Source of the DNA: Oscillospiraceae bacterium
GTDB lineage: Bacteria; Bacillota; Clostridia; Oscillospirales; Ruminococcaceae
DNA length: 64,000 nt
Direction: 5' to 3'
Assembly: GCA_017555565.1 (NCBI GenBank)
Contig: JAFZGF010000061.1
Location: forward strand, 14,431-78,430
Shown here: one piece after another, positions 1-46,451 of the stretch
Layout: every line of letters begins with the position of its first letter
How positions within the stretch are numbered: position 1 is the first letter of the stretch
Translations under genes and position numbers: made by a program
The notes under the pieces: model-generated
What the model was told of the DNA's origin: nothing
The model's database searches: none
Seen by the model: the letters and a program-made list of their open reading frames with translations, nothing else

Positions 1-3000
1 TTCCCAACAAGGGACGCAAACGGTTGGGGTATAGATGAGGACTACGACGACTTCTTTAAATCTGCAACAGTTAGTGGTCCAAACAACGATGTAAGGACAA
101 TTTCCGACTCTGATATATACGGTTTGATGAACAGATTTATGCACCTGCTGTCAAGCAACAACCCAGATGCTGAAAGTGTTTATGCTGGTCAGGAAAGAGG
201 CACAGAAACAGATAATGAAGAAAAAGTACAATACACAGCAACAGGTCAGAAAGATCTGACCAATAACAGTTGGTCCAGCTACTATCTTGTTCCTACAACT
301 GCATCTGACCTTACATCTATCTTCCAGCAGATCAGTGATAACGCCTCTGGCGGTTCATCAGTTCCTCTGGATAAAGACGCAACTGTAGAAGATATTGTTA
401 CACCTTACTTCACGGTACCTTCCGGTGCAACAGGTGTTACAGTACAGACAGTTGACTGTATCGGCTTTTCCGGTGCTAACCCACAGTGGGCACAGACAGC
501 AACAAACCTTACTTCAAAAGAAGTAAGCTATGACAGCACAACAAATACACTTGATGTTAAAGGCTTCGATTTCGCCAACAACTTTGTTTCAAGCTTTGCT
601 AGAGATGAAGATGTTTATAATGAAACAGGCGAAATTGAAGAAGGTGACTTCAACGGTAGAAAACTGGTAATCTCCTTCGAAGTTAAACCAGGCAACTTCT
701 TCCTCGGTGGTAACGGCGTTGCAACCAACGATACAAACACTGCCCTGAAAGATAAAGACGGAAACGAAGTAGGTAAATTCGCTTACCCAGAAGTTGATGT
801 TCCTCTCCTTGGTATTGAAATAGAATGGGAAAACCAGCATATCTACAGAACAAATGCTGCAGACATTTTTGAACTTTTCAAAAATGCAAAAGTTAAGGGC
901 CGTGATGGTTCCAAACTGCCTATAGCAGAAGTTCTCAACAGTACAAACAACAAATATGTAGATGTGGACTTTACTATTACAGGTGAAGGCTTCACAGCTG
1001 AATACCATCTGGAACATGGTGAAGTATTTGATGCTTCAAAACTTGTAGTTAAATCAGGTACAGCTAACCCTGTTCTGTCAGCAGATGCCAGCTATACACT
1101 GTCCTGGCACGTAAAACCTGATACAGATGGTACAACAAAACCAGCTGAAAAACCATCTACAGTTACAGCCACAGTTTACGTTTACAACCCTGTTCTTACA
1201 TTTACAGACAGCGAAGACTGGCTGGGCGATACTCTCACATACGGTGCAGGCACTAACTTTACAGCTGATGCTGAAACATGGGTTAACCCTAATGGCGAAC
1301 CTTATGTTGCAAGTCAGATGCACGGTGAAAAACCAACAGTTTCCATCACATGTGAAGTAAACCCAACAGGTGTTGAAAACGGTATTATCGTAACAAAAGA
1401 CTACGTTCCTGTACAGGCAACAGTAACTTTTACAAATGAAGATGATGTTGTTACTACTGGTGTAGAAAATACACACTATACAGTTGTTCGCGATACAGCT
1501 TGCGGAAAATGTGAATACGATGCGGACGATACAGAAGAATTCCGTGTTCACATCAACACAGTTTCTCTCAATATTACAAAAACAGTTACAGGTACTGCAA
1601 ACTCAACTGAAAACTTTACTGTAACAGTTGAATACACAGGCGCAGACTTTGACGAAACAATTTCAGTTCTCAAAAACTCCGTTGCAACCAATTTTGCAGT
1701 AACAGATGGTAAAGCTGAACTTCAGCTTACTATCAGTCACGGCCAGACAATCAGTCTGACAAACCTGCCAGTTGGCCAGTACACAGTAACAGAAACTGTA
1801 AACGCAACACGTTACGATACAACAGTTAATGGTGATATCGGAACATCTGCAACAGTTTCCCTTGACGATGAAAATGTTTCAGGTACAGTTAAATTTGTCA
1901 ACGAACTTAAAACAGGTAGTCTGACAATCAACAAAGAAGTTGTAATGCCAGCAGGTTTTGCAATCACAGCAGGTGAAGTGTTCACATTTACTGTAACTGG
2001 CCCAGATGGTTATTCATCTAAACAGACAGTTACAGTTGACGAATATGGCCTTGGTTCTGTAACAGTTAATGACCTCGTTCGGGGCACATACACAATTACA
2101 GAAACTCCAAAAAGTCTGTACACAACAACTTACCGGCCACAGTACGCAACAGTACCTGCAGGCGGTACAGCAACTGTAAAAGCTGTTAATACAGCTAAAA
2201 AAGGCAACCTCAGCATTACAAAAACTGTAGTGGACAATGCCGATAACTATGATTCTGCAAGCGACACATTTACTGTAAGAGTAACTGTTGCAGGATACAC
2301 AGGTGCGACTCTGCCTTACACTATCAATGGTGGTGAACAGAAGTATGCAACTGTAACAGAAGGTGTTGCAGAAATCACATTGGCCCACAACCAGACAGCA
2401 TTGATTGAAGATATGCTTATGGGCTCTGACTACACAGTAACTGAATTTCTTTCTGACCCTCAGAAACTGGTATACAAAGACCCTGCATATGTAAATGAAA
2501 TGGGCACAATTGCTGCAGGTGAAACAAAACAGGCAACAATTACAAACACTGTAAAAACAGGCAGCATCATAATTGACAAAGTACTCGATCTGCCAAACGG
2601 TGTATCTGTTGCTGATGGCGAAACATTCAGATTTACAGTAACAGGTCCTAATTACAACAATGCTGATATTGTAATCACAAAAGATGGTCAAGTTACAATC
2701 GGAAATCTTCTCGTTGGCGATTATACAGTTGTAGAAAATCTTGATACATACCAGCAGAAAGTATATGCAACTACATATAGCACTGATGGCACTGCAACAG
2801 TAACAGACGGCGGAGAAGCTGTTATTACAGTAACAAACAAAGTAACAGCAGGTAAACTTGACATCACAAAACAAGTTGCTGATGTTGGCACAAATACATC
2901 TAAGTTTACAATGGAAATCACTCTTGCAGGTGACATTGTTGTTGAAAAGCTTATTGGTACAGTAGCAGGCGTTTCTACAGAAATTCCAGTAACTAACGGC

Positions 3001-3513
3001 AAAGCAATAATCGAGCTTGCACACAACGAAACAGCACAGTTTACAAATATTCCTGTAGGTATGACTTATACAGTAAAAGAAACAGGCGTTGATACAAATT
3101 ACTTCGCAGTAACTTATACTAAAGAATCTGGTACAATTTCTGTAGACACACCACTGGTTACAGTAAACAATGCAAGAAAACTTGGTAAACTTACAATCTC
3201 TAAATCTGGATTAGATATGTCTGTCGATCCAGACCAGACAGTAATGTTCAAAGTAACAGGTGCTAATGATTACGAAGCTACAGTTGCTATTCTCGGCAAC
3301 AGTACTGCTACAATCATTGACCTGCCGCTGGGTACCTATACAGTAACTGAGCTGACAGATTGGGCATGGCGTTACACAGCTGATGCAACAACTAAACCAG
3401 CTGAAATTACATCTAAAGCAGATGGCAGTGTTGCATTTGCAAACACAAGGACAAATCCATACTGGCTGGATGGCAACGATTACAATGAAAACATTTTTGC
3501 TTTTAACAACTAA
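1..3513 (+). CDS. Large secreted surface adhesin, 5'-truncated by the window edge; six tandem Cna-B/SpaA-like Ig-fold stalk repeats; no C-terminal anchor
   Basis: Frame 1 is open from nt 1, with no stop before the first listed Met at 124, so the gene starts upstream of the window. From ~nt 1560 to 3450 the product is six tandem ~85-110 aa modules. Five of them visibly open with a G-x-L-x-I-x-K strand (TGSLTINKEV, KGNLSITKTV, TGSIIIDKVL, AGKLDITKQV, LGKLTISKSG). All six close with G-x-YT(V/I)-x-E (YTVTE, YTITE, YTVVE, YTVKE), typical of prealbumin-fold stalk domains of Gram-positive adhesins. The C-terminus (...NENIFAFNN) has no LPXTG motif or TM anchor. The part before the repeats ends like a vWA-type head domain (weak). 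Confidence 0.75.
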   Translation, partial: FPTRDANGWGIDEDYDDFFKSATVSGPNNDVRTISDSDIYGLMNRFMHLLSSNNPDAESVYAGQERGTETDNEEKVQYTATGQKDLTNNSWSSYYLVPTTASDLTSIFQQISDNASGGSSVPLDKDATVEDIVTPYFTVPSGATGVTVQTVDCIGFSGANPQWAQTATNLTSKEVSYDSTTNTLDVKGFDFANNFVSSFARDEDVYNETGEIEEGDFNGRKLVISFEVKPGNFFLGGNGVATNDTNTALKDKDGNEVGKFAYPEVDVPLLGIEIEWENQHIYRTNAADIFELFKNAKVKGRDGSKLPIAEVLNSTNNKYVDVDFTITGEGFTAEYHLEHGEVFDASKLVVKSGTANPVLSADASYTLSWHVKPDTDGTTKPAEKPSTVTATVYVYNPVLTFTDSEDWLGDTLTYGAGTNFTADAETWVNPNGEPYVASQMHGEKPTVSITCEVNPTGVENGIIVTKDYVPVQATVTFTNEDDVVTTGVENTHYTVVRDTACGKCEYDADDTEEFRVHINTVSLNITKTVTGTANSTENFTVTVEYTGADFDETISVLKNSVATNFAVTDGKAELQLTISHGQTISLTNLPVGQYTVTETVNATRYDTTVNGDIGTSATVSLDDENVSGTVKFVNELKTGSLTINKEVVMPAGFAITAGEVFTFTVTGPDGYSSKQTVTVDEYGLGSVTVNDLVRGTYTITETPKSLYTTTYRPQYATVPAGGTATVKAVNTAKKGNLSITKTVVDNADNYDSASDTFTVRVTVAGYTGATLPYTINGGEQKYATVTEGVAEITLAHNQTALIEDMLMGSDYTVTEFLSDPQKLVYKDPAYVNEMGTIAAGETKQATITNTVKTGSIIIDKVLDLPNGVSVADGETFRFTVTGPNYNNADIVITKDGQVTIGNLLVGDYTVVENLDTYQQKVYATTYSTDGTATVTDGGEAVITVTNKVTAGKLDITKQVADVGTNTSKFTMEITLAGDIVVEKLIGTVAGVSTEIPVTNGKAIIELAHNETAQFTNIPVGMTYTVKETGVDTNYFAVTYTKESGTISVDTPLVTVNNARKLGKLTISKSGLDMSVDPDQTVMFKVTGANDYEATVAILGNSTATIIDLPLGTYTVTELTDWAWRYTADATTKPAEITSKADGSVAFANTRTNPYWLDGNDYNENIFAFNN

Positions 3514-3529
3514 GAAAGGAGACAGATAA

Positions 3530-4126
3530 ATGAAAGTTTATAGAGCCAATAATGGCAAAAAGAAAATTTCTGCAGTTGCAATCTGTCTTCTTCTGACAGT
3601 TGTAATGGCAGTAGGTGGCACGCTGGCTTACCTGTTTACAAACACAGACCCTGTTACAAACACATTTAAACCTGCCCAAGCACCTAATGAAATCAAGGAA
3701 ACAATGACCAACAACGTAAAATCCAATGTTTACGTTCAGGTTCCACAGAACGAGAAAAATGTAGATGTTTATCTGCGTGTTGCCGTAGTGGTTTCCTGGC
3801 AGGATAAAGATGGCAATATTGGCCCAAAGGTACCGGTTAAAGATACTGATTATGTAGTTGATATGGGCGATAGTAAGTGGGTGTTGCATAACGGCTATTA
3901 CTATTACACCGATATAGTTTCTCCAAACGAATCGACAGAATATTTGTTTGACTCTATTACAGTTGTTGATGGTGCAACACCAGAAGGGTATGCTTTAAGC
4001 GTTGAACTTCTTTCTCAGTCCATCCAGGCTGAAGGAACTAATGCTAAAGGTGAAAAACCTGTACAGCTGGCTTGGGGCGTTACAATTGCTGAGGGCAGTG
4101 TAACTGCCTATACACCACAGCCATAA
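3530..4126 (+). CDS. Small secreted protein with SipW-dependent-type signal peptide
   Basis: An aaggag RBS lies just upstream of the ATG. The N-terminus KKKISAVAICLLLTVVMAVGGTLAYLFTNTDPV matches the SipW-cognate signal peptide pattern (hydrophobic core followed by GGT-L/F-AY-F/L-T-D) known from TasA/CalY-type matrix proteins. Confidence 0.7.
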   Translation: MKVYRANNGKKKISAVAICLLLTVVMAVGGTLAYLFTNTDPVTNTFKPAQAPNEIKETMTNNVKSNVYVQVPQNEKNVDVYLRVAVVVSWQDKDGNIGPKVPVKDTDYVVDMGDSKWVLHNGYYYYTDIVSPNESTEYLFDSITVVDGATPEGYALSVELLSQSIQAEGTNAKGEKPVQLAWGVTIAEGSVTAYTPQP

Positions 4127-4140
4127 GGAGGGAATAAATT

Positions 4141-4875
4141 ATGAAACACACAACAAAACGTTTATTCTCTCTGGCGCTGGCAGTAGTGATGATGATGGGC
4201 TTGGCCCTGTCATCATCTGCTGCAGGTATCGTTACATACGAAGGCAAAAGCGGCGAAGAAAAATTTGTCCTCGCACCTGGCACAGAATATTCTGTGTCAG
4301 ACCTGTTTACAGATTTCAAAAACCTTATGCCTGGTGATAAAATCTATCAGACAATCCGTCTTGTTAACAATGGCAAAGATGGCACAACTACAAAGTTCTA
4401 TCTGAAAGCTATTGGCCCTGCATCAGCAGACAATGAAGACCTGCGCTTTAGCGGTGATAAGCTGGGCAATGGCAAAGACAACGACGGATATACAGACAAA
4501 GTGTATGACACTGCTCTGTTAGATCAGCTGAAGATGACAGTAGAAATTGTAAAGACAAATGGCAACGAAACTATCTTTGAAGCTCCTGCTGATCAGACAG
4601 CCGGTCTTTCCGACTGGGTTCTCCTTGGCAGCCTGCGTAAAGGTGGCGAAATCGACCTGGAAGTTACAATCGAAGTTCCTGCAGAAATGGGCAACGAGTT
4701 TCGGGATCTTGCAGGTGCTTTGGAATGGGCAGTTAAAATTGAAGAAATCCCAGACCCTTCAGTTCCAGACACAGGTGACAACACAGGCGCTATGATGTAC
4801 GCTGCAATGTTCGGCGTAGCAGCTATGGCACTGATCGTGATTATTATTCTTAAGAAAAGAAAAACAGAAGAATAA
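4141..4875 (+). CDS. TasA/camelysin-like beta-sandwich protein with sortase sorting signal (LPXTG variant VPDTG)
   Basis: An aaggagg RBS precedes the start. The Sec signal peptide ends ...LALSSSAAG. The NLMPGDKIYQTIRLVNNG segment resembles the N-L-x-PGD strand of the TasA/peptidase M73 family. The C-terminus is VPDTGDN + hydrophobic stretch (AMMYAAMFGVAAMALIVIIIL) + KKRKTEE, a classic cell-wall sorting signal layout. Confidence 0.65.
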   Translation: MKHTTKRLFSLALAVVMMMGLALSSSAAGIVTYEGKSGEEKFVLAPGTEYSVSDLFTDFKNLMPGDKIYQTIRLVNNGKDGTTTKFYLKAIGPASADNEDLRFSGDKLGNGKDNDGYTDKVYDTALLDQLKMTVEIVKTNGNETIFEAPADQTAGLSDWVLLGSLRKGGEIDLEVTIEVPAEMGNEFRDLAGALEWAVKIEEIPDPSVPDTGDNTGAMMYAAMFGVAAMALIVIIILKKRKTEE

Positions 4876-4953: not shown

Positions 4954-4983
4954 AAAAAAGCTCCCTGCAGGGAGCTTTTTGTG
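4954..4983 (-). terminator. Terminator of the RyR/TIR operon (bidirectional shape)
   Basis: Stem aagctccc-tgca-gggagctt flanked by an A-run on one side and a T-run on the other. It lies 11 nt beyond the stop of the TIR gene. Confidence 0.65.
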
Positions 4984-4993
4984 TATTGCTTAA

Positions 4994-7900
4994 TCAGTCG
5001 ATAAGATAGGTCTGTCTTTCGGCGGCTGTAAGCTGGCGGTCGCCCAGAATATCCCTGGCCATTTCAATAAGCTGGTCAAATGAGTAGTAAGGGTAGAAAC
5101 GGGAGTATTCATTGTCAGCAATAACGGTTGTTACACCGTTACAGGCCATACAAGGGCTGATGGTGTTCTGCAGTTTGTAAACCCCTGGGGCTACAAGATC
5201 ATACATCTGCACATTGTTGGAGATATATGCGCTTACTGTCAGTTTCGCACTCATCAGACTGTCGCCGTAGAATGAAAAATCAAGAGAACTGAATTCAGCC
5301 GTGGTTTTTTCCATTGTATATTTGCCTTCGCGCCAGTTGTAAACTTTCAGATGGTATCCGCCATCCTGCATAATTATATGGTCACTGTCTGGTGTAAAGG
5401 ATATTTCCGTACTGCCCACAATGCCAAAATCAAGGCTGTGGAGAATTTTCATTGTAGAAATGTCCAGTATTTTTATGCTTCCGTCGGTGCCGTACATATT
5501 GATAATGCTTGTATCCGGCATAATCCAGCCATCCTGGCGGTAGTAGGAAATGCCCCGTGGCATAACATCGGCAGCTTCCTGAGGCAGAGTCAGCCAGCAG
5601 TTGTTTTCCATATCCCACACTGGCATCATACCTACAGCAGGCTGTTCTTTGCCGTCCTTGTCCAGCATTACAACATCGCAAGGTATCAGCAGATATTTGC
5701 TGTCGCCGGACAGCATTGCAGATTTAACAGCGAATCTGGACAGGTTTTCGCCCATATTCAGCGCAGAAATGATTTCTTCAGTTGTAAAAGTCACAGCGTC
5801 TTCGCCGCTGGCAGCATCTTTAACCCATATAATGTTTTTAGTCGCCTTGTCAGCTGAATAGCTGAATGAACCGGCAGGAGCGTAGTTATCTGTAACTGTA
5901 AAGGCTGTTGTCAGTGTATTGTACTGATTTGCACTTATAAACAGCTCGGTATCCGGGTTGTAAATATCGGTGGCAGGATAATCTTTTACTGAAGCAGTTT
6001 CGATATCATAAACAGACAGCACAGCCTTTCCGTTTGCAGGGTAAACAAGGTATCTGTTGTTTATAATCTGTGCATTGTAGTCGTAAACTGTGGTATTTAC
6101 CGCATCATCAGCCCACAGTTCTTCTTTGGTGTTTACATCATAAAGGTGAATTTTGTCCTGATGTTCGATAAACCACATATAGTTGCTGTTTTCTGAAAAA
6201 CCGACCATTGAGGGACTTGCACCCATTGACTTGAAGTTAAAGTCGATATTGTCCTGATACCAGTGAATAGCAGAGCCGTTAAAAATATATGTTCTGTCAT
6301 TATAGCGGCATATATTTGAAATAATGCCAAGGTCGAGATAATAGGACGTACTGTTCAGCACCGGGTTGTAAACCTTGTCATCCAGTGGATTAGTTACAAA
6401 CACATAGCCGTCCTGAGTTATCATCATTATGGATGTTTTGTTTGGCAAAGGCTGTGCCAGCTTGATGGCACTGCGGTCTTCAATACGGCTGTAAATATGG
6501 CCGCTTTCCCGGTCTATCACGGCAAACACATTGCCGGCGGTAATGCCGACACATTTTCTTGTTTCACCGTTTCTGTCGTTGGCCTCAAATGACTGTATAC
6601 CGAAATTGTAGTTAAGGCTCATAGAGTTTTCTGCCACAGTCCACAGCTTTTCACCTGCGGAAATATCGTGGCAGTCCACATACCAGTTGAAGGGGTTTTC
6701 CACTATACCCATAGCGATAACAGATGTATCGTCAGAATAAACCGATATCAGTCTGTTGTTATCCAGCCAGTAAAGATGGTTAAGCCGCCAGAAAGCAGGT
6801 ACAGAATATGTGTACACAGCCTGTCCGCCATCAATGGGATAGACATAAATATGGTTTATGCCGTTTTCATCTGATTTTTCGCCGGGCTGTTGCAACTGTA
6901 TGGCTACATAGTTGCCGTCAGGGGATATGGCTACATCCTTTGTCTTCCAGCTGTCATAAAGGGATGTACCAATGTTTTTATACATATCATCAGCGTGCCA
7001 GAAAGTTGCTGTGCCGCTGGATATATCCAGGTTGTAAACCTTATGGCTGTCCAATACAGAATAATTGTATTCGTATGTAAGCTGCGGTGTGAAAATTGCT
7101 TCTTCATACCAGCGGAAGTTGGTGTTCACACAGACCAGACTGTCAGTTTTTTTGCTGTAAGCCCAGTCAAATTTGGTGGAATAACATTTTTCGCAGGCAG
7201 GGAACTGCCATTGCCACAGCAGACTGCCGTCTGTGTAGTTGATACAGTACAGACTGTCAGCGGTTTTGATAAGCAGACGGCTGTCAGATGCCAGTTTCGC
7301 TTCTTCAGCCACATAATCGCTGACTTTCAACAGAAGCGTGCCATCTTTGGCGTTCCACAGATAAACATACCCGTTAAGGTCCATTGTCATCAGTACATCA
7401 TTGGCGGCGTCATAGTCGGTAATATAGCTGCTGTCTGTGTCCATAGACATCTTCTTCACTGGGTGAAGATTGTAATAGTAGTCCATTCGGTAGGTGTACA
7501 GCGCATTTTCCAGAGCCATACGGGCCTCTGCCACATAAGGGCGGCTGTTGTCATTACTGCCCTTTGGCAGAGCTTCCAGAGCCACCAGCAAGGATGTCTC
7601 CCTGTCGCCTTTTTCCAGCAGGTCATTAGCTGTCTGGGCAAGATAACGAGACTGATTTTCCTGCTTTGCTATAAAGTTTTTGTTGATTTCAATGTTCTGT
7701 TTAATTGTAACTGCACCAAAAAGTAATGACACAGCGGCCACAATGCCGGATAATGCCGCCAGGCGGCGCATACGCCATACACGGTGGCGCTGGTACAACT
7801 CGTCATAGGTGCAGCCCAAAATAGGTGCAACCAGGCGGGACATACGCTGTTTGGCCAGCTTCAGCATTTCTTTTTCATTTGGAGCGCGCAGGTCAAGAGC

Positions 7901-8332
7901 CAGCGGTTCGCCGTTCTCCAGCAGTATATCCGGGAAAACATCATAAGGTTCCCCTTCGATGATCACAGCCAGTATGTTGTCGCGGCTGCGGTGCTTAAGA
8001 AAAGCTTCGATTTCCTTTATGCACCATTTGGACTGTTTATATCGTGGAGAAAGAACAACCACCAGATATTCCGATGATTTGATGCTGTTTTCAATCTCTG
8101 TAAACAAATCGCTGGAAGCGCCCAGTTCTTCTTCGTCTCGGAAAACACGGTTAATTTTCTTTTTACCTATTTTTTCCTGAATTTCCTTTGGGATTTTGTA
8201 GTTTTCCAGGGCCTTGTGCAGATAGGCAGCGGCCGCACTGTCCAATGGGGCGTGGCGGTAGCTGATAAACACATCAAAACGGAAATCCTGCTTTGGTTGG
8301 TTTTCGTTTAACATTTCGGGTTGATTAGTCAT
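4994..8332 (-). CDS. TIR domain - single TM - beta-propeller-repeat protein
   Basis: The N-terminus FDVFISYRHAPLDS...FRDEEEL...YLVVVLSPRYKQSKWCIKEIEAF is a TIR domain that retains the S-x-WC-x-x-E catalytic-Glu motif. The TM helix LAALSGIVAAVSLLFGAVTI is preceded by RHRVWRMRR. After it come at least 11 blade-like repeats of the form hydrophobic-Y/W-D/N-x-x-S/T-G-x-x-L-W (YLWNAKDGTLL, NYTDGSLLWQW, HDISAGEKLWTV, LYDVNTKEELWA, VYDIETASV, and others). Confidence 0.85.
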   Translation of the reverse strand: MTNQPEMLNENQPKQDFRFDVFISYRHAPLDSAAAAYLHKALENYKIPKEIQEKIGKKKINRVFRDEEELGASSDLFTEIENSIKSSEYLVVVLSPRYKQSKWCIKEIEAFLKHRSRDNILAVIIEGEPYDVFPDILLENGEPLALDLRAPNEKEMLKLAKQRMSRLVAPILGCTYDELYQRHRVWRMRRLAALSGIVAAVSLLFGAVTIKQNIEINKNFIAKQENQSRYLAQTANDLLEKGDRETSLLVALEALPKGSNDNSRPYVAEARMALENALYTYRMDYYYNLHPVKKMSMDTDSSYITDYDAANDVLMTMDLNGYVYLWNAKDGTLLLKVSDYVAEEAKLASDSRLLIKTADSLYCINYTDGSLLWQWQFPACEKCYSTKFDWAYSKKTDSLVCVNTNFRWYEEAIFTPQLTYEYNYSVLDSHKVYNLDISSGTATFWHADDMYKNIGTSLYDSWKTKDVAISPDGNYVAIQLQQPGEKSDENGINHIYVYPIDGGQAVYTYSVPAFWRLNHLYWLDNNRLISVYSDDTSVIAMGIVENPFNWYVDCHDISAGEKLWTVAENSMSLNYNFGIQSFEANDRNGETRKCVGITAGNVFAVIDRESGHIYSRIEDRSAIKLAQPLPNKTSIMMITQDGYVFVTNPLDDKVYNPVLNSTSYYLDLGIISNICRYNDRTYIFNGSAIHWYQDNIDFNFKSMGASPSMVGFSENSNYMWFIEHQDKIHLYDVNTKEELWADDAVNTTVYDYNAQIINNRYLVYPANGKAVLSVYDIETASVKDYPATDIYNPDTELFISANQYNTLTTAFTVTDNYAPAGSFSYSADKATKNIIWVKDAASGEDAVTFTTEEIISALNMGENLSRFAVKSAMLSGDSKYLLIPCDVVMLDKDGKEQPAVGMMPVWDMENNCWLTLPQEAADVMPRGISYYRQDGWIMPDTSIINMYGTDGSIKILDISTMKILHSLDFGIVGSTEISFTPDSDHIIMQDGGYHLKVYNWREGKYTMEKTTAEFSSLDFSFYGDSLMSAKLTVSAYISNNVQMYDLVAPGVYKLQNTISPCMACNGVTTVIADNEYSRFYPYYSFDQLIEMARDILGDRQLTAAERQTYLID

Positions 8333-8353
8333 ATATTTTCCTCTTGTTAGAGT

Positions 8354-9916
8354 TTATGATTTCAGAAAGCCTGCAAGCTGTTGTAACAGCTGCCAGGAAT
8401 AATCGTCCTTCTGCTGTGTGGCAGGGGTCAGTTTATCAAAAGGTACCATAGACGGATGATGGCGGCGGCTGTTGTCACGGGCTGGGTTGTATGTCCAGTT
8501 GTACAACGCGTGGAATCTCATCCAGCGGTCGTGTTCAAGATGACGGTAAAAATCCGCTTTTTCATCTTTTGTGGCTATATATTTTTCATATGCCGCCATA
8601 CAGATGTCGGCAGTAATTTCAGTGATGGTGTCATCTTCCAGCAGAATTCTGATTTTTGTCAGCAGATGGTCTGCGGCAGAAATGTTGGAAGCACGTGTAA
8701 ATGCAGAAAGTTCTTCCCAGCGTGGAGAGTCTGCACCCGTGGAGTCCAGATATATCTGATGCATTGCCTGTGCGGTTTTTACAAGGGTTGTGCGCATAAC
8801 CACATTTGCTGTGTAGATATGCCGATGGTTGCCAAAAGAGATGGTGCCCGGCATATGCTGTGACAGTCGCAGGTGAATATCTCCGTCAATTACAAAATAT
8901 TTTGTAATTGTATTATAAATCTTCAGATTTTCCCGGTCGGTTGCCTTGGCGATAATCACTCGGTCAGCCGATGTTATTATATCCGCATTGTTTTCCCAGC
9001 CGGTTGGGTAAAAAATCACGCTGTCGCAGTTATGTGATTTTTCATTTATACAAACCATAGTGGCAAGCTGTGGATGTATTTGCGCAAACAGACTGTCCTT
9101 TGCAAAGATATGATAGCAAACAGACTGCTGTGGGCTGAACAGATTCACCTGCAACCCTTGTGCCAGCAGGGTATCTGCATATTCGGCGTCTGCGATAATT
9201 GCCACATTCTTGGCTGTCTGTGGCAGTGGGGTATTGCGCCAGTAAAGACGGGCAACATTTTCAGCCATATTGAAAACTGTCAGGTCAGCAGGTTGTGTTT
9301 CGCTGTTGAAATCCGACTGGCAGTAAACCCTGTAGCCTTTGCCACAGAAATTTATTGAGTTCTTGTAATTGGCATAGCCGTCAGTATCCATAAAAAACAG
9401 ATTAATGTCTGTCGGGGCTTTTTTCAGATTCAATATGTCTTCCGTACTGCCCTTTACAAACATTGCTCCCAGCTTTTTCAGTGGTGCCGTCAGCTCTGTG
9501 CCGTCTTCTTTTGGAAACAGCAGTACAGCCTTTGGATTTTCGCTCTTTATTGACTGTGCCAGCGCACAGGTAGCATCATTGAGTGAAGAAAAAACAAACC
9601 ATTGTCCTGACTGCATAAAGCCAAGGCGGAATCGCACCCACAGCTGACCAAAAGTCATAATAATTACCACCAGCATAGCCAGTAAGCTGGTAGACAGCAG
9701 CAGAAATACACTGCCTATTATTTTGCCCATAGCGGTAACCGGTGACAGGTCGCCATATCCTACGGTGGTAAGGGTAACTACCGAATACCACAAGGCATCT
9801 TTTATTGATGTTATGGATGCATCTGGGTTGGAAGATTCGGCATATACCAGCAATGCCAGCATAACAAAATATGCCGCCAGCAGTGATATTACCGCCAAAA
9901 TGTGTTGCTTTTTCAT
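8354..9916 (-). CDS. Two-TM K+ channel with cytosolic domain and C-terminal RyR domain
   Basis: Canonical K+ selectivity filter TLTTVGYGDLSP lies between two TM helices. The C-terminal LEHDRWMRFHALYNWTYNPARDNSRRHHPSMVPFDKLTPATQQKDD fits the RyR-domain consensus (H..W...GW.y....k.hP.lvpf..L). The gene ends 21 nt upstream of the TIR gene. Confidence 0.85.
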   Translation of the reverse strand: MKKQHILAVISLLAAYFVMLALLVYAESSNPDASITSIKDALWYSVVTLTTVGYGDLSPVTAMGKIIGSVFLLLSTSLLAMLVVIIMTFGQLWVRFRLGFMQSGQWFVFSSLNDATCALAQSIKSENPKAVLLFPKEDGTELTAPLKKLGAMFVKGSTEDILNLKKAPTDINLFFMDTDGYANYKNSINFCGKGYRVYCQSDFNSETQPADLTVFNMAENVARLYWRNTPLPQTAKNVAIIADAEYADTLLAQGLQVNLFSPQQSVCYHIFAKDSLFAQIHPQLATMVCINEKSHNCDSVIFYPTGWENNADIITSADRVIIAKATDRENLKIYNTITKYFVIDGDIHLRLSQHMPGTISFGNHRHIYTANVVMRTTLVKTAQAMHQIYLDSTGADSPRWEELSAFTRASNISAADHLLTKIRILLEDDTITEITADICMAAYEKYIATKDEKADFYRHLEHDRWMRFHALYNWTYNPARDNSRRHHPSMVPFDKLTPATQQKDDYSWQLLQQLAGFLKS

Positions 9917-9927
9917 AATGTTACCTT

Positions 9928-11793
9928 TTATAAGTTGTTTTCGTTGATAAGTTTATATATGTCTTGTATTGCCAGCACATTGTTTCTGTCAGCTTGTTTA
10001 TAGTCCACATTGCCACCTGTTATTGCGTTTTCGCGCTGTGACAACGCGTCCAGCTCATCCCACGGAATAAGGCAGGCGTGCTGGCGGCTGGCTGTATCTT
10101 TGCCCACACGGATTTTGCCGTTGCCGCAAAGGGATTTTTCTTCTATAAACTGCTGTTCCCTGGCGGCATAAACATCATCCGGCATTTTTTCATATCCCAT
10201 TGCATAATGGAAAGCCATCCAGCGCAGGTGTTCTGTAACAGCCAGGTTTTCCAGCTGTGTGTCGGTCAGTGCCCACTGCTGTGCAGGGTTTTGGCCGGCT
10301 ATCAGAGCCATTGATGGCATAAAGTCAGCAGAAGCACGGCTGGACATACGGCTGAACCAGTCACACACCGCCCAGTTTTCCTGCGGCGTTTTGTCGTTTT
10401 TGCAATATCTGTTGTTCAGCGTGGTCGCCATATAATCTATTTTTCCGGTGCACAGTACATCGGTGGAAAATACAGGATACTGTTTTGGCGGAATGTTGCC
10501 GTCTGTCAGGCAGGTTATACCGCTGTAATCTGCCAGATAAACCTGGGCATCACTGCCTATTCTGGCGAGATAGCGGGTGATTTCTCCGCCGATTTCGTTG
10601 TTTGTTTTGTCACTGCCTGTGCAGATAACGATATAGTTCATATCGTCTTTTCTGGCCAGGATATAGTCGTACATACTGCGGCTGCGGCCGTCATAATCAT
10701 AGAATTTTATATTGTAGTTGTCTGTAAGGGAGCGGCAGGTGGCAGAGATATATCCGCTTACCTGCTCAAAATCCGGTGCAAAAACCGCCAGTGAAAATTC
10801 ACTGTCTTTAAACTGCCCATTCATAACCAGCTGTTTCATAACAGCCTGGCCCACCTGGCCAAAGCCGATCAGAACAGCTTCAAAATTTTCTGCAGCTGTG
10901 CAGTCTGTGGCAAAATCCATAGTTGCGGCAGGTGGGAAATGGTGCATCAGCAAACGGGCTGTAAGGCTGGCGGCGTCAAAAACAGTCACGTTTCCAAAGC
11001 CGTATTTATCCCCCAGAGCCTGCAGTGGCTCGGTGTGTAGCTCTTCTGTCCCCAGCATAACAAGATTTGTCTGGTTTGCAGGTATATGGGCTGTTTCCAG
11101 GGCATCTTTCAAAGCAAAGGCATATTTTATGTTTTTTGCCTCGTTTTTATGTAAAAGATAAAAATCATATTTTCTGTTTTTGCCCCTTATACCCAGACTG
11201 CGCAAAAAGCGTCTGTCAGGCCAGAGGGCGTTTTTGTCTTGTATTACAACACCGCCAAAAGAATTTATGGCGTTTTCCAGAGTAGAGGTCGCCTTATCGT
11301 CAACAAATACCAAATTGTTTTTGTTGTTTTCAGTCAGCTGTCGGCCAAAAGAAACGCTGTCCTCATTGATGCAGTAAATCAGCGAAAGATTGCCAAAGCA
11401 GGCCAGCCACAGACGCATACGGCGCAAAGCGCGGGTGCCGATAGCTGCAATGGCGGCGCTGGCGGTAGCGTACTGAGCCATAAAATGCACAGCCCAGAAA
11501 TACAGCACAGCGGCTTTTGATGCAAACAGCGGAGTACTGCTTACAATGGCAAAATCATTTTTGGAAACAAACATCCCCCACACAGCCATAACGCTGCGCA
11601 GAATTGCCAGGGGTGGGTTGTCAGCAAAGGCTATACCATAACCATAGCTGTATATAAACAGTCCGGAGATACCTGCCCAGGCAATGCAGAATCCCGTTAT
11701 CTTTGCGGAATTTTCCTTCTTCATTGCCAGATTAAGAATTATAGCCAGAAAAAGCACACCTGTAAAAAGTGCCACCATTGTAATACCAAACAT
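9928..11793 (-). CDS. Polytopic membrane protein with Rossmann (TrkA-N/RCK-like) domain and C-terminal RyR domain
   Basis: The N-terminal ~130 aa are hydrophobic helices with no K+ filter. A GxGxxG motif is present (VLIGFGQVGQAV). The C-terminal TEHLRWMAFHYAMGY...RQHACLIPWDELD is RyR-domain-like. There is an 11-nt gap to the K+ channel gene. Confidence 0.75.
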   Translation of the reverse strand: MFGITMVALFTGVLFLAIILNLAMKKENSAKITGFCIAWAGISGLFIYSYGYGIAFADNPPLAILRSVMAVWGMFVSKNDFAIVSSTPLFASKAAVLYFWAVHFMAQYATASAAIAAIGTRALRRMRLWLACFGNLSLIYCINEDSVSFGRQLTENNKNNLVFVDDKATSTLENAINSFGGVVIQDKNALWPDRRFLRSLGIRGKNRKYDFYLLHKNEAKNIKYAFALKDALETAHIPANQTNLVMLGTEELHTEPLQALGDKYGFGNVTVFDAASLTARLLMHHFPPAATMDFATDCTAAENFEAVLIGFGQVGQAVMKQLVMNGQFKDSEFSLAVFAPDFEQVSGYISATCRSLTDNYNIKFYDYDGRSRSMYDYILARKDDMNYIVICTGSDKTNNEIGGEITRYLARIGSDAQVYLADYSGITCLTDGNIPPKQYPVFSTDVLCTGKIDYMATTLNNRYCKNDKTPQENWAVCDWFSRMSSRASADFMPSMALIAGQNPAQQWALTDTQLENLAVTEHLRWMAFHYAMGYEKMPDDVYAAREQQFIEEKSLCGNGKIRVGKDTASRQHACLIPWDELDALSQRENAITGGNVDYKQADRNNVLAIQDIYKLINENNL

Positions 11794-12019
11794 AAACTGC
11801 CTCTATATATACATATTAATGTATTTTCAGTATAACAAAATTTTCGGGTTAACTCAATAAAATATAATGGTGACAATGCAAGAAGATTTAGAAAGATAAA
11901 TTTCGTTGTACAACATTACTAAAATTATACAATATATACTATACAAAATGCTGAAAATGCAATTTGATATTGCAATTTAAACAAATCGTGAAATTAGACA
12001 AAAAATATTTAAAAAAATT

Positions 12020-12048
12020 GTTGACATTAGCTAAAAGCTGTGGTAATA
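12020..12048 (+). promoter_or_regulatory. Sigma-A type promoter of the candidate ncRNA
   Basis: TTGACA (12020-12025), a 17-nt spacer, then TAATAT (12043-12048) preceded by TGG (extended -10 like). Confidence 0.5.
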
Positions 12049-12054
12049 TATCTA

Positions 12055-12663
12055 ACGTTGCCGAGAGATATGGCAAACGGGAAGAAGCCGAAAGGCAGAA
12101 ACCTGAAGCTGAGTAACCCGAACCTGAACGCGCAAGCGAAGGGGAGAAGGCCAAGACCCGCAAGGGAGGGCCGAGGCGCTGAGGTAGCCACTGTGAGGCG
12201 AGACAGCGAGCGGAGAAAGGAAGCGCAGTAAGCTGAGTACCAGAATCTGAAGGACGGCATGGCAACAGGCCGGCCAGAAGAGGAAGAGCGAGGGAGCCGC
12301 AAGGCGAACGGACAGCACCGAAGGAACCGCCGACAGGGGAGAACGGGAAGAAGGGAAAAGGAAGACGGAAGGCTGAGTAGTCAGAACCGAGGGTCAGCGG
12401 ACGAAAGAAAGCCAAAACAGCGGAGGTCAGAAAGCGGAAAGGAAGCGGCGATAAGCTGTGGAATGGATGGCCCAGAGAAAGCCGAAAGGCAAGGGTGAGT
12501 CGGGTGAAGCATCTGCAGAGATTGAATCCGGCGGAAGACGAAATGAAATTGCAGACGAAACTATTCGTTGAGCAGTGAGTTGAGGTCGCAAGACTGAAAC
12601 CACCGCTTGATGGAGAGTGGAGATAGATAAAGTAGCTTTGACTGTAAGGTCAAGGCTTTTTTT
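12055..12663 (+). ncRNA. Candidate large (~600 nt) structured ncRNA, strongly purine-rich, class not identified
   Basis: It is bounded by a near-consensus promoter and an intrinsic terminator. Stops occur in all frames, and the only ORFs give low-complexity R/G/E/K text. At least six minimal hairpins are capped by GNRA tetraloops: gcc-GAAA-ggc 12086-12095, cgc-GCAA-gcg 12128-12137, ccc-GCAA-ggg 12156-12165 (extended by ggcc/ggcc at 12148-51/12168-71), gcc-GCAA-ggc 12295-12304, gcc-GAAA-ggc 12480-12489, gtc-GCAA-gac 12584-12593. GCTGAGTA recurs at 12107, 12231 and 12371, with the variant GCTGAGGTA at 12177. Confidence 0.5.
12633..12663 (+). terminator. Intrinsic terminator ending the candidate ncRNA
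   Basis: Stem agctttgac / gtcaaggct (one G-U pair), loop tgtaag, followed by a T-run at 12656-12662. Confidence 0.65.
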
Positions 12664-12707
12664 GTTTTTATAGGTTCTTAACAATATTAAATTATGACAA
12701 ATTAAAA

Positions 12708-31090: not shown

Positions 31091-32803
31091 CTATTTTTTT
31101 ATTATCCAATTACTTGTTTGTCGATTATCTGAATCTGTAACAATCACATTACTTTTTCTTAAAGATGTCAATAATGTCAGTACTTTTCGTTTCTTTTGTT
31201 TATCATCCAAAACATTAGGAAGTTTATCCCATAACAGGTCATCAAGCTGTTTTCTATTTGCTTTTCCAAACTTATTGATGTAATCGACTATCATATCTTT
31301 ATAATATTGATCATTAAAACCCTTATTTTTAATATATTTCGCCTCTTCATCAATACTTTGAGCTATTTCTGCAGACAAATACAAATTATTTATACGTCCT
31401 TCAACCAATTTGTATTTCCTCAAGTGTTCCACAGCCTCTTTACTAAGGGATTGTTTTTTTTGAACCTTATCCAACAAGTATACGGTTTCTAATGTTAGCT
31501 CTGGATGTCTAAACAACATATAGGTGTATTTTTCATCAATAATTTTACCATATACAGTCACTTCCACTTGATCATGCTTGGACAAGTCGTAGTCCGGCAT
31601 AGGAAAATATTTCTCTTTTTGAATTCGATATATTTTCTTTATACCACTTGTAGCCGTATCAATCATATGAAAATTAACCATCGCATCCGCAAGTAACCAG
31701 TTTCTATAGAACGGAGGATTATATGTTGGTTGCAATACAGTTTCAATACTTTCTGGTAAAAAATTACCAGGGTTTGTAATTGTTATACTTTCTTCAAATT
31801 CATTTACATATATTCTTCCACCTAACTGGTAATTTGAATGAGCTATACAGTTATTAATCAACTCTCTAAGTAGCCATGCATCATACTGCTGAGTTTCTTT
31901 AGGGAAGAGAGACATTTGATCTGGCATATATCTGTATGTCAGATTTCTAATTTTAGCGAATATTTTATCAACTACAGTAATAAATGGGATGGTAAAAATT
32001 GAATAATCTTTTATTGATCCATCTTTATCTATTAATCGCCACATCACAGAAGGTGGATATTGTAGCTTATAATCGTGTTCCGAACTACCTAATAAAACAA
32101 TTGCTGCATTCGTTAATTGCCCATCAATAACTAACTTTAATTTACCTAGAAATTGTTCATCACTTAAGGAATCAATTTCTTCTGCTATGTGAGCTCTATT
32201 CATTTTTTCTTTATATTTTTCACGAGCTAAAGCAATCGCATCTCTATCTAAATGTTCGATTGTCGCATTAGGTACAATTTGCTTTGACCAATCAGAGCGT
32301 TCCTGTCTTCTTATCTGGTCTATTTTGAATTGCTGTAAATTTATTAAACTTTCTCCAGCTCTAGCATAAAAAACATTTTTCCAACCCGTAGGGATCCCTA
32401 TTGCGGCCGCTGGTATTTTAAACATTAAAACACGTTTCGGCTTACCATTTACAATAGGGTAAATTTCAATAATATCTGTAAAAGTTATATTTCCTGTTGT
32501 AGACTTAGCAATTTCATACTTAAAGTTTTCTAACAGAGAAATATTACCGTTTTTAAACGATGTCCCACATATATGTTTTTTATCTTTTTCACTTACTCCT
32601 AGAATTAACCACCCATATTGTTGATTCTTGAGATTAGCTTCATTACTAATTGCAGAAAAATACTGGCCAATTTTATCTGTTGAATATTGGCCCGAAGCTT
32701 CTTTAAATTCTACAATCTCATATTCCCATCTATCTATCAGTAAGCTAAGAAGATCATAATATTCGGTATTTGGTGATTTTTTATCATAGGTGAAATATTC
32801 CAT
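31091..32803 (-). CDS. AlbA_2 (Schlafen-like) + HATPase_c_4-like + C-terminal wHTH protein
   Basis: The N-terminus EYEIVEFKEASGQ...NQQYGWLILGVSEKDKKHICGT fits the AlbA_2 divergent-AAA pattern (E..EFK ... GG.l.iGv.d.g.i.G). The middle segment LLRELINNCIAHSNYQLGGRIYVNEFEESITITNPG fits the RecG-C-terminal-like ATPase pattern (NA..HrDY...i.i..f.d.i.i.NPG). Confidence 0.65.
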   Translation of the reverse strand: MEYFTYDKKSPNTEYYDLLSLLIDRWEYEIVEFKEASGQYSTDKIGQYFSAISNEANLKNQQYGWLILGVSEKDKKHICGTSFKNGNISLLENFKYEIAKSTTGNITFTDIIEIYPIVNGKPKRVLMFKIPAAAIGIPTGWKNVFYARAGESLINLQQFKIDQIRRQERSDWSKQIVPNATIEHLDRDAIALAREKYKEKMNRAHIAEEIDSLSDEQFLGKLKLVIDGQLTNAAIVLLGSSEHDYKLQYPPSVMWRLIDKDGSIKDYSIFTIPFITVVDKIFAKIRNLTYRYMPDQMSLFPKETQQYDAWLLRELINNCIAHSNYQLGGRIYVNEFEESITITNPGNFLPESIETVLQPTYNPPFYRNWLLADAMVNFHMIDTATSGIKKIYRIQKEKYFPMPDYDLSKHDQVEVTVYGKIIDEKYTYMLFRHPELTLETVYLLDKVQKKQSLSKEAVEHLRKYKLVEGRINNLYLSAEIAQSIDEEAKYIKNKGFNDQYYKDMIVDYINKFGKANRKQLDDLLWDKLPNVLDDKQKKRKVLTLLTSLRKSNVIVTDSDNRQTSNWIIKK

Positions 32804-33127: not shown

Positions 33128-34270
33128 TCAATATTTTAGTCTCTCCATAATTATAGTTTTAAGTCTACTGTTCATAGATATAGATTTAATAGCAATTTCC
33201 AAATTTTGTGCATAGAAGTAATTAAAACTCATATTATTTCTCAAGTGTTTCGGAAATGTAATTGAAAACATGATTCCTGTAGTTATAGTTGCTGCCCAAT
33301 CATTTAATGGAACTGTAAACTTTATCTTATTTATTGAAATATTATCAAGAACCTTTGATATTAACTTCATATCCCATTCACTACACTCAAGCCAAGGTTC
33401 TTCTTTTATGTAATGAAAAATCATTTTGTCATATGCATGACGAACAACACTCACTATATTGTCCGCAATTTGCAGCAAATCATTATCTTTACTGTCTTCA
33501 AACTTTATGTCAATCGAATAATTTTTTAGTTCTTTTCGCATTGTATCAGAAAATTCTTTGATATTGTCGTGAATATACTCAATATCCGAATTAGATTGAT
33601 TATTATCCACTTTTATAAAAGTGATTAATTCTGCCAACGCATTCATATTAATCAAATTTGTAATCTGTGGGTTATCATACCATCCAAATGTCATAAAATC
33701 TTGATAACATTTATCCGTTATATTTTCATCAAGTATTTTATTGGCCATAATTTTAGCAGCATTTTCTGGCAATTCTTCAGAATATTCGTAATTGATCAAA
33801 AAATTTAGATAGTCTATAAATTCTGTTTGACCCAAATTTTGTATATACTTTAAATATTGGACAAAAAAATCATCTTTTTGCTTAGATAAAAATGAAGCTT
33901 GGACATAGAAATGCTCTGGTATAGTCTCTTGATATTCAATACCATACAAAGATAGCAAAAGCATTGTGGATATATAAAATTTTTTATCATATAAGATGAT
34001 ATAAAAATGCTTATTATCAAAAATATGCTTTAGCATGTAGTTCAGTTCTGCATTCCTTTTTCGCACTAAAAGATCACTACCTTTTATTTCTCCTGATATT
34101 TTATATTTTCTTTTAAATGCTTGATACTTTTCTATCAATATTTTCTCGTCTTTTTCATTATTAACAACTACAGCTGCCAAAGCAAAAGTCGGTTGTGTTT
34201 GGAAATTCAGTAAATCATCTTTTTGCAACACACATCCACTTTGTCCAGATTCATCAAAATATATTTTCAT
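33128..34270 (-). CDS. DUF3800-family protein
   Basis: It starts MKIYFDESGQSG (the DUF3800 N-terminal hydrophobic-DESG motif) and carries the C-terminal LLQIADNIVSV motif (lQ.AD.ia). ATGA overlap with the upstream gene. Confidence 0.65.
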   Translation of the reverse strand: MKIYFDESGQSGCVLQKDDLLNFQTQPTFALAAVVVNNEKDEKILIEKYQAFKRKYKISGEIKGSDLLVRKRNAELNYMLKHIFDNKHFYIILYDKKFYISTMLLLSLYGIEYQETIPEHFYVQASFLSKQKDDFFVQYLKYIQNLGQTEFIDYLNFLINYEYSEELPENAAKIMANKILDENITDKCYQDFMTFGWYDNPQITNLINMNALAELITFIKVDNNQSNSDIEYIHDNIKEFSDTMRKELKNYSIDIKFEDSKDNDLLQIADNIVSVVRHAYDKMIFHYIKEEPWLECSEWDMKLISKVLDNISINKIKFTVPLNDWAATITTGIMFSITFPKHLRNNMSFNYFYAQNLEIAIKSISMNSRLKTIIMERLKY

Positions 34271-38182: not shown

Positions 38183-38257
38183 ATGTCAATCAAAGTTACA
38201 TATAACACATCCATACACATTAGAATAAAATCACAATAAAAACAAGTGAGGAAACTA

Positions 38258-46300: not shown

Positions 46301-46451
46301 TATTATAATTGTTGTAAAATTTCTTTCAGTTCAGGCCATTCACTAGAATATTTTTCTTGTCAAATTGTTCTAATATTATGAGTTTGTTGAAATAATGATA
46401 TTGCTAATATATAATATAAGTTATAATAACAAAATAAAATGGAGGCAGAGT

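Follow-up and report, generated by a model that had tools for sequence, protein, structure and literature searches.

The subject of this study is a cassette of three genes in a stretch of 64,000 nucleotides from an Oscillospiraceae bacterium (contig JAFZGF010000061.1), the whole of which we call the window. Calling of open reading frames (ORFs) in the window placed the three genes on the minus strand in the order A, B, C, with intergenic gaps of 11 and 21 nt. Gene A (9928-11793) encodes a protein of 621 aa. Gene B (8354-9916) encodes one of 520 aa, a K+ channel with two transmembrane (TM) helices, a tandem of RCK-like domains and, at the C-terminus, a RyR domain, and gene C (4994-8332) one of 1112 aa, with a TIR domain predicted to be cytoplasmic, one TM helix and a predicted extracytoplasmic region resembling a beta-propeller. 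An AT-rich promoter region precedes A (11794-11940, minus strand). It contains a -35/-10 match (11857-11829) and a ribosome-binding site, GAGG, upstream of the ATG of A; Shine-Dalgarno-like sequences are also found ahead of the start codons of B and C. The cassette ends with an intrinsic terminator (4955-4980, minus strand) made of an 11-bp stem, a 4-nt loop and a T run. An earlier note, made from the letters of the DNA, had described three minus-strand genes with these short gaps, an AT-rich promoter upstream and a terminator downstream, and the ORF positions, the promoter match and the stem-loop agree with that description. The cassette is probably a previously undescribed system of signalling from a TIR protein to ion channels.

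Protein B matched Ion_trans_2 in a Pfam search (E 3e-14), and its K+ selectivity filter (T48-D56, TLTTVGYGD; 9749-9775, minus strand) was found to be invariant in an alignment of 28 family members, which confirms the previous assignment of one upstream gene as a bona fide 2-TM K+ channel on the basis of its TVGYGD motif. The best Foldseek matches of an AlphaFold2 (AF2) model of B (predicted local distance difference test score, pLDDT, 89) were GsuK (4gx1, 4gx0, 4gx2), followed by Slo2.2, Slo1 and MthK, with a probability of 1.0. The Foldseek E-values of the A and B models against RCK channels were modest (7e-5 to 1e-3, 7e-5 being the lowest value for B), and the sequence identity of the two proteins to known RCK-gated channels amounts to 10-17%. 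Neither A nor B had a TrkA_N match in Pfam, despite the tandem RCK (Rossmann) fold that follows the inner helix in both, and the second Rossmann motif of the window B protein is degenerate (AIIADAEYA). The last ~80 residues of B form a RyR domain of the Repeat12 type (8357-8599, minus strand), in which H462, W465, H487 and K503-D504 are invariant. This domain scored 26.9 bits with the Pfam RyR profile (PF02026), just under the cut-off of 27.4. Among PDB sequences, it matched Repeat12 of RyR2 (residues 890-935) with an E-value of 4e-12, as well as bacterial and phage entries with RyR domains, and many B homologues carry a precomputed PF02026 annotation. With its TVGYGD filter and the GsuK/Slo/MthK fold of its model, B is predicted to be the scaffold of a ligand-gated channel.

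Protein A had no match in Pfam, NCBIfam or PADLOC. It belongs to a well-conserved family of ~620 aa proteins, for which a profile search returned 373 clusters at 50% identity with E-values up to 1e-30. When the A and B families were compared with hhalign, they aligned over 422 columns (probability 99.6%, E 1e-24), which extend from the filter to the RyR domain and include both Rossmann domains, and the C-terminus of A also matched B by BLASTP (E 1e-6). At the filter position the window protein has VSKNDF and the family consensus is VGKNDF, versus VGYGD in B. The membrane part of A starts with an additional N-terminal TM helix, which is followed by an outer helix, a segment resembling a pore helix, the degenerate filter and an inner helix. 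Its cytoplasmic part consists of a tandem RCK-like Rossmann pair (GFGQVG), the GxGxxG motif being kept in the family alignment, and then of a RyR-like domain with an insert of ~25 aa (residues ~505-615; 9949-10281, minus strand). In this domain H522, W525 and H572 are invariant, as is E588, which lies beside the column of D117 of RyDEP, a phage protein described below. The AF2 model of A (pLDDT 89) was closest in Foldseek to the gating rings of Slo2.2, Slo1 and DMI1. By sequence comparison, A is a full-length paralogue of B, that is, a channel-like subunit with a degenerate filter. It had previously been described as a membrane protein with a Rossmann (RCK-like) domain; the fold is as stated, according to the matches with RCK gating rings, and the description was incomplete in that it left out the paralogy with channel B. 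The view that both upstream proteins end in a RyR domain stood as well, through the PDB match for B and the profile match to B for A, whose membership of the RyR family is established only by way of the latter.

Two proteins of 1140-1151 aa (P0409 and P0413) were considered as possible A-B fusions of the Rosetta-stone kind and rejected, A being fused in them to a TM helix and not to B. They consist of an A-family protein, a C-terminal TM helix and ~530 further residues; in P0409, the one that was scanned, these comprise a peptidase domain of the papain family and a lectin-like domain, for which a location outside the cell is presumed.

Protein C begins with a TIR domain (residues ~19-150; 7883-8278, minus strand). 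In a search with Pfam-type profiles, residues 21-149 matched TIR_2 (E 1e-14), TIR (1e-10) and ThsB_TIR (2e-7). The closest solved structures are those of enzymatic plant TIRs (AtTIR, L6, ROQ1 and RPP1), and the Glu of the SKWCIKE motif of C, the putative catalytic residue E107 (8012-8014), is aligned with the region of the catalytic Glu in plant TIRs (SSWCLDE, SKWCLME). The same position was occupied by Glu in 165 of the 175 TIRs of the C family and of the partner classes presented below, the 10 exceptions being small TIRs whose TIR-TPR partner retains the Glu. Since this Glu is so widely kept and enzymatic TIRs of plants are the closest relatives with a solved structure, the TIR domain of C looks catalytically competent. 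A hydropathy scan revealed one hydrophobic helix in C (residues 192-210; 7703-7759, minus strand), with the Arg-rich sequence RHRVWRMRR on its N-side, which predicts that the N-terminus is inside. By this prediction, the TIR domain lies in the cytoplasm and the other ~880 aa lie outside the cell. This outer region (residues ~230-1112; 4997-7645, minus strand), predicted to be extracytoplasmic, gave weak matches to beta-propeller families (PQQ_2, WD40-type) in a profile search. Both the N-terminal TIR with its catalytic-Glu motif and the single TM helix with its positive-inside flank had been noticed before, and both are borne out. The topology prediction also supports the previously suggested Toll-like layout in reverse order, which extends to partners of the TIR-TM-LRR and TIR-TM-TPR types in other genomes.

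Two preprints of 2026 report that phage proteins with a RyR domain bind or cleave 2'cADPR and 3'cADPR, two isomers of cyclic ADP-ribose (cADPR) (PMC13232231; 10.64898/2026.06.04.730250). RyDEP (gp78) of mycobacteriophage DyoEdafos is a RyR/PF02026 protein with H75 and D117 as its catalytic dyad (PMC13232231), while RyR Tad, gp68 of Pectobacterium phage CB1, sequesters 1''-3' gcADPR (glycocyclic ADP-ribose) via H129/W132, K147/H154 and K170/D171 (10.64898/2026.06.04.730250). The ligand residues of the two proteins make up the same set, H, W, H, (K)D (PMC13232231; 10.64898/2026.06.04.730250). The affinity of phage RyR domains for cADPR isomers is nanomolar, and 6 of 8 RyDEP homologues tested, all with the same residues, bound the signal, while none cleaved it (PMC13232231). 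Alignment with gp78 indicated that B and four of its homologues retain the H, W, H and D of RyDEP with identical spacing, plus the preceding Lys; H462, W465, H487 and D504 of B, equivalent to H75, W78, H100 and D117 of RyDEP, are invariant in the 28 members of the B family. A and four A homologues retain three of the four residues (H, W, H), the D117 column being occupied by N or I, right after the invariant E588. Channel proteins whose genes adjoin TIR genes in a conserved manner, as shown in the next paragraph, have kept in their RyR domains the residues that bind 2'/3'cADPR in phage homologues, and we infer that the RyR domain of A and B is a putative ligand module for the product of the TIR enzyme. 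The two preprints supersede the remark in the earlier note that ligand sensing is not known for RyR domains.

Relatives of the cassette were collected by scanning one genome per species of GTDB (185,579 species genomes) with a profile of A. At least 234 stretches matched, and the best 80 of these were kept as the locus set, in which ORFs were called and searched with our own A, B and C profiles and with a general TIR profile. A TIR gene was counted as a neighbour if it lay within 8 kb, and the 38 loci with flanks of 5 kb or more in both directions were also considered separately. The 80 loci all come from Clostridia or Erysipelotrichia, mostly from the guts of ruminants and other animals. A was accompanied by both B and a TIR gene in 21 loci, by B in 25 and by a TIR gene in 23, and it was alone in 11 (12, 12, 10 and 4, respectively, of the 38 loci with long flanks). 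A thus adjoins B and/or a TIR gene in 69 of the 80 loci, and in 34 of the 38; a TIR gene lies within 8 kb in 44 of the 80 A-anchored loci and B is present in 46. The conserved co-occurrence of the three gene types, for which the earlier note had called for a survey, was therefore found. The genes occur in at least eight orders, including AB, TA, ABT, AT, AB.TT, BA and TAB (T standing for a TIR gene), the median gaps between them being 1-35 nt. Of the 1017 genes called in these loci (1.23 Mb), 54 were TIR ORFs, and every one of these was inside an A/B cluster; the 64-kb window contains a single TIR ORF. Two distant B homologues, which had been chosen independently, were both located in clusters of the A-B-...-TIR type. 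In addition, two metagenome-assembled genomes with a TIR-less A+B locus (GCA_023664305.1 and GCA_023663605.1) contain a C homologue on a separate contig of the same assembly.

The TIR partners have four architectures. The TIR-TM-propeller class (~1000-1170 aa) was found in 19 loci, a degenerate small TIR (W to A, E to R) accompanied by a TIR-TPR protein of ~686 aa in 10, and a small TIR of ~265-310 aa with a short tail past the TM helix in 8. In the fourth class, TIR-TM-LRR (657-703 aa), the TIR gene lies directly downstream of A (loci and positions L018:11861-13834, L024:11915-14026 and L041:3028-5064). Pfam and hydropathy scans indicated that, in every class, the TIR domain is N-terminal and is followed by a single hydrophobic helix at ~185-260 and then by the variable part. 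Five partners representing all four architectures were scanned with Pfam, which supported the TIR calls, four of them being above the TIR_2 cut-off and the degenerate small TIR giving a weak match. A fixed receiver with swappable sensors is, by analogy, the pattern of sensor-effector systems such as Thoeris and CBASS.

A variant of the cassette, seen at L036:13423-19164, contains A with or without B, a secreted Ser/Thr-rich collagen-repeat protein of 760-944 aa, a degenerate TIR of ~275 aa and a TIR-TPR protein of 686 aa that retains the Glu. It was also found at L015, L037, L039, L054, L056, L071, L076, L084, L176 and L177; the collagen-repeat protein is missing in L176, and a 662-aa unannotated ORF takes its place in L177. 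Two solo TIR-TM-propeller genes (L173:4456-5967 and L174:4496-6004), both on contigs of Lachnospiraceae type, are directly preceded by a gene for a ~500-aa DHH or DHH/DHHA1 phosphoesterase, the two genes overlapping by 4 nt in L174. The phosphoesterase may be a signal-degrading partner, or the arrangement may merely be conserved synteny.

Positions 4992-11795 are the only part of the window that is common to relatives (56-80% protein identity), neither flank matching theirs, and the GC content of the cassette is 43-49%, versus 31-39% in the adjacent 13-23 kb. Since only this segment is shared and its GC content is atypical, the cassette behaves as a mobile accessory unit. Its neighbours in the window are genes for sortase-dependent surface proteins, for the envelope enzymes MBOAT, YfhO and PMT_2, and gal/lac genes. 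In the set of 80 loci, transporters (ABC and MatE) and enzymes of metabolism make up most of the 149 nearest flanking proteins. A defence-island context was rejected after PADLOC and Pfam scans of these proteins, and carriage by a phage or prophage was rejected after a scan of IMG/VR with the A profile, which came back empty.

We propose that these proteins form a Thoeris-like chain leading from a surface sensor (C) through a nucleotide made by its TIR domain to RyR-gated channels (A and B), and we put the probability of this reading at about 0.6. C would be the sensor, with an extracytoplasmic propeller that would detect a cue at the cell surface. The cue would activate the cytoplasmic TIR, probably by clustering, and the active TIR would turn NAD+ into a nucleotide derived from ADP-ribose (ADPR), most likely an isomer of cADPR. 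A and B would be the receivers and effectors, as paralogous subunits of tetrameric P-loop channels, both of which combine a tandem-RCK gating ring with a RyR domain at the C-terminus. Binding of the TIR product to the RyR domain would move the gating ring and open the pore, with K+ flux through B and flux through A altering the membrane potential. The end result would be either growth arrest or abortive infection, or else a physiological response to a surface cue.

Several observations weigh against this chain. In 25 of the 80 loci, A and B are found with no TIR gene within 8 kb, and in 11 of the 80 A has neither partner in the DNA examined, some of these cases being at contig ends. More distant TIR-TM-propeller genes often stand solo among housekeeping genes. 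Coupling in cis is therefore not obligatory. In A, the filter-like loop holds a Lys or an Arg, and the equivalent of the Asp D117 of RyDEP is lacking. The placement of the outer region of C outside the cell is drawn only from the hydropathy scan and the positive-inside rule. The RCK domains of GsuK bind NAD+ and ADP, so that the RCK pair, rather than the RyR domain, could be the sensor in A and B. Finally, defence genes were not enriched among the 149 flanking proteins (PADLOC, Pfam), the PADLOC matches being sparse and generic, and no copy of the cassette was detected on the viral contigs of IMG/VR by the A-profile scan. The abortive-infection role put forward in the earlier note receives no support from such gene neighbourhoods.

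As to the purpose of the chain, defence and physiological outside-in signalling are about evenly matched. Mobility, patchy distribution and sensor swapping favour a defence role; the housekeeping context, the outside-facing sensors and the strictly K+-selective pore favour a signalling role. The latter reading, which we hold tentatively, is that a cue from the envelope, the host or a neighbour would be perceived by a surface receptor with a propeller, LRR or TPR ectodomain and would lead, via a TIR messenger, to K+ channels that adjust the membrane potential or the K+ content, in an electrical manner of the YugO type. It would account for the location of the variable domain outside the cell in all TIR partners, for the secreted Ser/Thr-rich, collagen-like protein that is part of one cluster variant, and for the position of the window cassette among genes for surface proteins and envelope glycosylation, and it agrees with the housekeeping neighbours devoid of defence enrichment, with the absence of copies on IMG/VR contigs and with the filter of B, which is strictly K+-selective and not that of a crude pore. 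It sits less well with a cassette that relocates as a unit and has an atypical GC content, that is patchily distributed (at least 234 stretches in 185,579 species genomes) and that swaps sensor domains, as is typical of conflict systems. Furthermore, every bacterial TIR-signal system characterised so far is anti-phage (10.64898/2025.12.03.692087), and the window contains a defence island at a distance of 19 kb.

The TIR domain could also be a mere consumer of NAD+, the RCK domains sensing the fall in NAD+ or the rise in ADPR as in GsuK, and the RyR domain being only structural or dimerising. The best structural matches of B are indeed GsuK structures with ADP or NAD (4gx1, 4gx2), A retains a GxGxxG Rossmann motif, and many bacterial TIRs are plain NADases (10.64898/2025.12.03.692087). 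We consider this reading unlikely, however: the RyR ligand residues are invariant in both families, which would not be expected of a purely structural domain, the second Rossmann motif of the window B is degenerate (AIIADAEYA), and phage RyR domains bind cADPR isomers with nanomolar affinity (PMC13232231). Still less probable is that the RyR domains of A and B are RyDEP-like glycosidases or sponges, serving signal termination or self-protection, in channels gated by other means. B keeps the catalytic dyad of RyDEP (H75 and D117, corresponding to H462 and D504; PMC13232231), but most RyDEP homologues only bind (6 of 8 bound and none cleaved; PMC13232231), A is devoid of the Asp, and ligand gating accounts better than a sponge for a domain attached to the gating ring of a channel. 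As to a chance adjacency of C, as an unrelated surface protein co-transcribed with two K+ channel paralogues, it would fit with the solo occurrence of many distant C homologues and with the 25 loci out of 80 where A and B have no nearby TIR. It is contradicted by the locus counts and effectively excluded, since 44 of the 80 loci have a TIR gene near A/B, in many orders, with four TIR architectures and with operon-like gaps, and no TIR ORF was found outside A/B clusters in 1.23 Mb.

Returning to the chain from C to A and B, a wider form of it can be entertained, doubtful as it is at present. The cassettes would be bacterial outside-in receptors, in which a propeller, LRR or TPR region would sense phage adsorption, envelope damage or a molecule of the host or of a neighbour and would act through a TIR cyclase and a cADPR-type messenger on RyR-gated K+ channels. 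They would then be a prokaryotic counterpart, and a possible evolutionary source, of the axis linking cADPR to ryanodine receptors, and would represent the first Toll-like (ectodomain-TM-TIR) transmembrane signalling to be described in bacteria.

Other features of the window were also recorded. A surface-protein cluster (124-4875, plus strand), sortase- or SipW-dependent, encodes a protein of 1129 aa, in which four DUF7601 repeats are combined with a SpaA domain, along with a matrix protein of the BsaA family and a protein anchored via LPXTG. The defence island mentioned above (31091-64000) has a low GC content (28-35%) and starts 11 genes, or 19 kb, from the cassette. It encodes an SLFN/AlbA_2 protein with HATPase_c_4 (31091-32803), a DUF3800 protein (33128-34270), an ApeA HEPN protein (34267-35655), a protein kinase-NB-ARC STAND protein (38246-41623), GmrSD (46395-48536), NOV_C (49170-50432) and an Eco57I-like methylase (51504-53183), and it comprises large ORFs with no Pfam match (42255-45875, 55193-57229 and 57229-60708). 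Divergent from the cassette is a purine-rich stretch of ~610 nt (12050-12665, plus strand; 70% A+G), which is flanked by a sigma70-like promoter (12021-12049) on one side and an intrinsic terminator (12634-12657) on the other. It contains no plus-strand ORF of 80 aa or more and has many short G-C stems with GNRA loops, and the z-score of its minimum free energy is -2.4. Rfam gave no match in this stretch or in the window as a whole, and neither related loci nor plasmids contained anything resembling the stretch. We regard it as a candidate for an as yet unrecognised structured RNA.

Two features of the system proposed here are new, namely cellular channels with RyR domains, the presumed receivers, and TIR sensors that are anchored in the membrane and carry outer domains; they would add an effector class and a sensor topology to TIR signalling. 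The mid-2026 preprints on phage RyR proteins raised the question of whether signal-reading RyR domains exist elsewhere (PMC13232231; 10.64898/2026.06.04.730250). Our data provide a host-side context for these domains, which in hundreds of gut Clostridia form part of K+ channels and are linked genetically to TIR enzymes. If the proposed chain is true, the channels would offer a small model for the way in which RyR Repeat12 couples nucleotide binding to gating, with a bearing on the disputed action of cADPR on animal RyRs. The cassette also indicates that TIR signalling modules may reside outside defence islands, where screens based on guilt by association miss them.

Among known systems, Thoeris is the most obvious term of comparison. 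The Thoeris survey of December 2025 lists 29 putative types, with types V-XI validated (Yirmiya et al., bioRxiv 10.64898/2025.12.03.692087). As presented there, a small TIR of the ThsB type is paired in type X with ThsK, an effector labelled 'ion channel', the signal being unknown and phage protection shown (10.64898/2025.12.03.692087). Like our cassette, type X and the types with other membrane effectors (II, V and VII) have a TIR with a catalytic Glu in an operon with a membrane effector that carries a nucleotide-binding module, a putative one in our case, and Thoeris sensors and effectors are likewise modular and swappable. Whereas ThsB is small and cytoplasmic, the TIR of the cassette is predicted to be membrane-anchored, with a large outer domain, and is nearest to plant-type TIR_2; the cassette modules also differ from Thoeris in showing no enrichment in defence islands. 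We compared the effectors by taking the TIR sequences of type X from Table S1 of the survey (10.64898/2025.12.03.692087) and scanning metagenomes, which gave 80 loci. When the same TIRs were run against plasmids with tblastn, only type II (Macro) systems were retrieved. The type X-like effectors encoded upstream of TIRs 47-74% identical to that of Bacillus sp. BH32 are multi-TM proteins of 190-240 aa, versus the RCK-RyR channels of 520-620 aa in our cassette, to which they are unrelated. The three that were scanned, putative type X effectors beside ThsB-type TIRs (L089:244-957, L091:3021-3641 and L107:487-1101), had no RCK, RyR or Pfam match, and only one type X-like effector gave a match, a weak one (E 0.002), to the pore region of the B family. 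Locus L107 has two ThsB-like TIRs in succession. Membership of Thoeris type X by homology was thus rejected, the effectors being unrelated, and the likeness is one of analogy. As regards homology to the named Thoeris effectors (ThsA, ThsC-L), PADLOC gave no match for A or B, and the earlier opinion that the cassette corresponds to no named defence system holds as far as homology is concerned. The term 'RyR' is absent from the main text of the survey and from the effector labels in the part of its supplements considered here (10.64898/2025.12.03.692087). Full-text literature searches, the coverage of which is incomplete, so that an earlier mention is possible, retrieved no publication describing the cassette.

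Phage RyDEP and RyR Tad share with B a PF02026-type domain in which H, W, H and (K)D have identical spacing, and with A the H, W and H. They are small, soluble, dimeric anti-defence proteins, in contrast with the RyR domains of the cassette, which are C-terminal modules of cellular channels linked to TIR genes and which, in our reading, would act as receptors and not as sponges or enzymes. The channels GsuK, MthK and Slo resemble B in having a 2-TM pore, a TVGYGD filter and two RCK-like Rossmann domains, and A is similar to the gating rings of Slo and DMI1; unlike those channels, A and B have an additional C-terminal RyR domain, and the K+ filter is lost in A. Channels of the GsuK/MthK/Slo type are gated by Ca2+, Na+, NAD+ or ADP, GsuK having been solved with NAD and ADP, and we know of no RCK-gated channel that has been linked to TIR genes.

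Toll-like receptors (TLRs) and the plant TIR-NLRs (nucleotide-binding leucine-rich repeat receptors with a TIR domain) also join a repeat-domain sensor to a TIR domain, in TLRs via one TM helix. The order is reversed in the cassette: TLRs have an LRR, a TM helix and a C-terminal TIR, whereas the C protein of the window has its TIR at the N-terminus, predicted to be inside, and its propeller-like sensor at the C-terminus, predicted to be outside, and its LRR relatives in other genomes are reversed in the same way. There is no homology beyond the TIR domain and the repeats. The likeness to TLRs is an analogy, and the TIR of the cassette would be expected to be an enzyme and not an adaptor scaffold. 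Animal ryanodine receptors, finally, have in common with the cassette a Repeat12-type RyR domain on a cation channel, and the linkage of this domain to TIR genes, which would code for an ADPR-cyclase-type enzyme, parallels the idea of a route from SARM1 or CD38 through cADPR to the RyR, of which the last step, the gating of animal RyRs by cADPR, is disputed. In contrast with the animal receptors, which are Ca2+ release channels of 5000 aa, the proteins of the cassette are predicted to be small K+ channels with an RCK ring and one RyR repeat per subunit.

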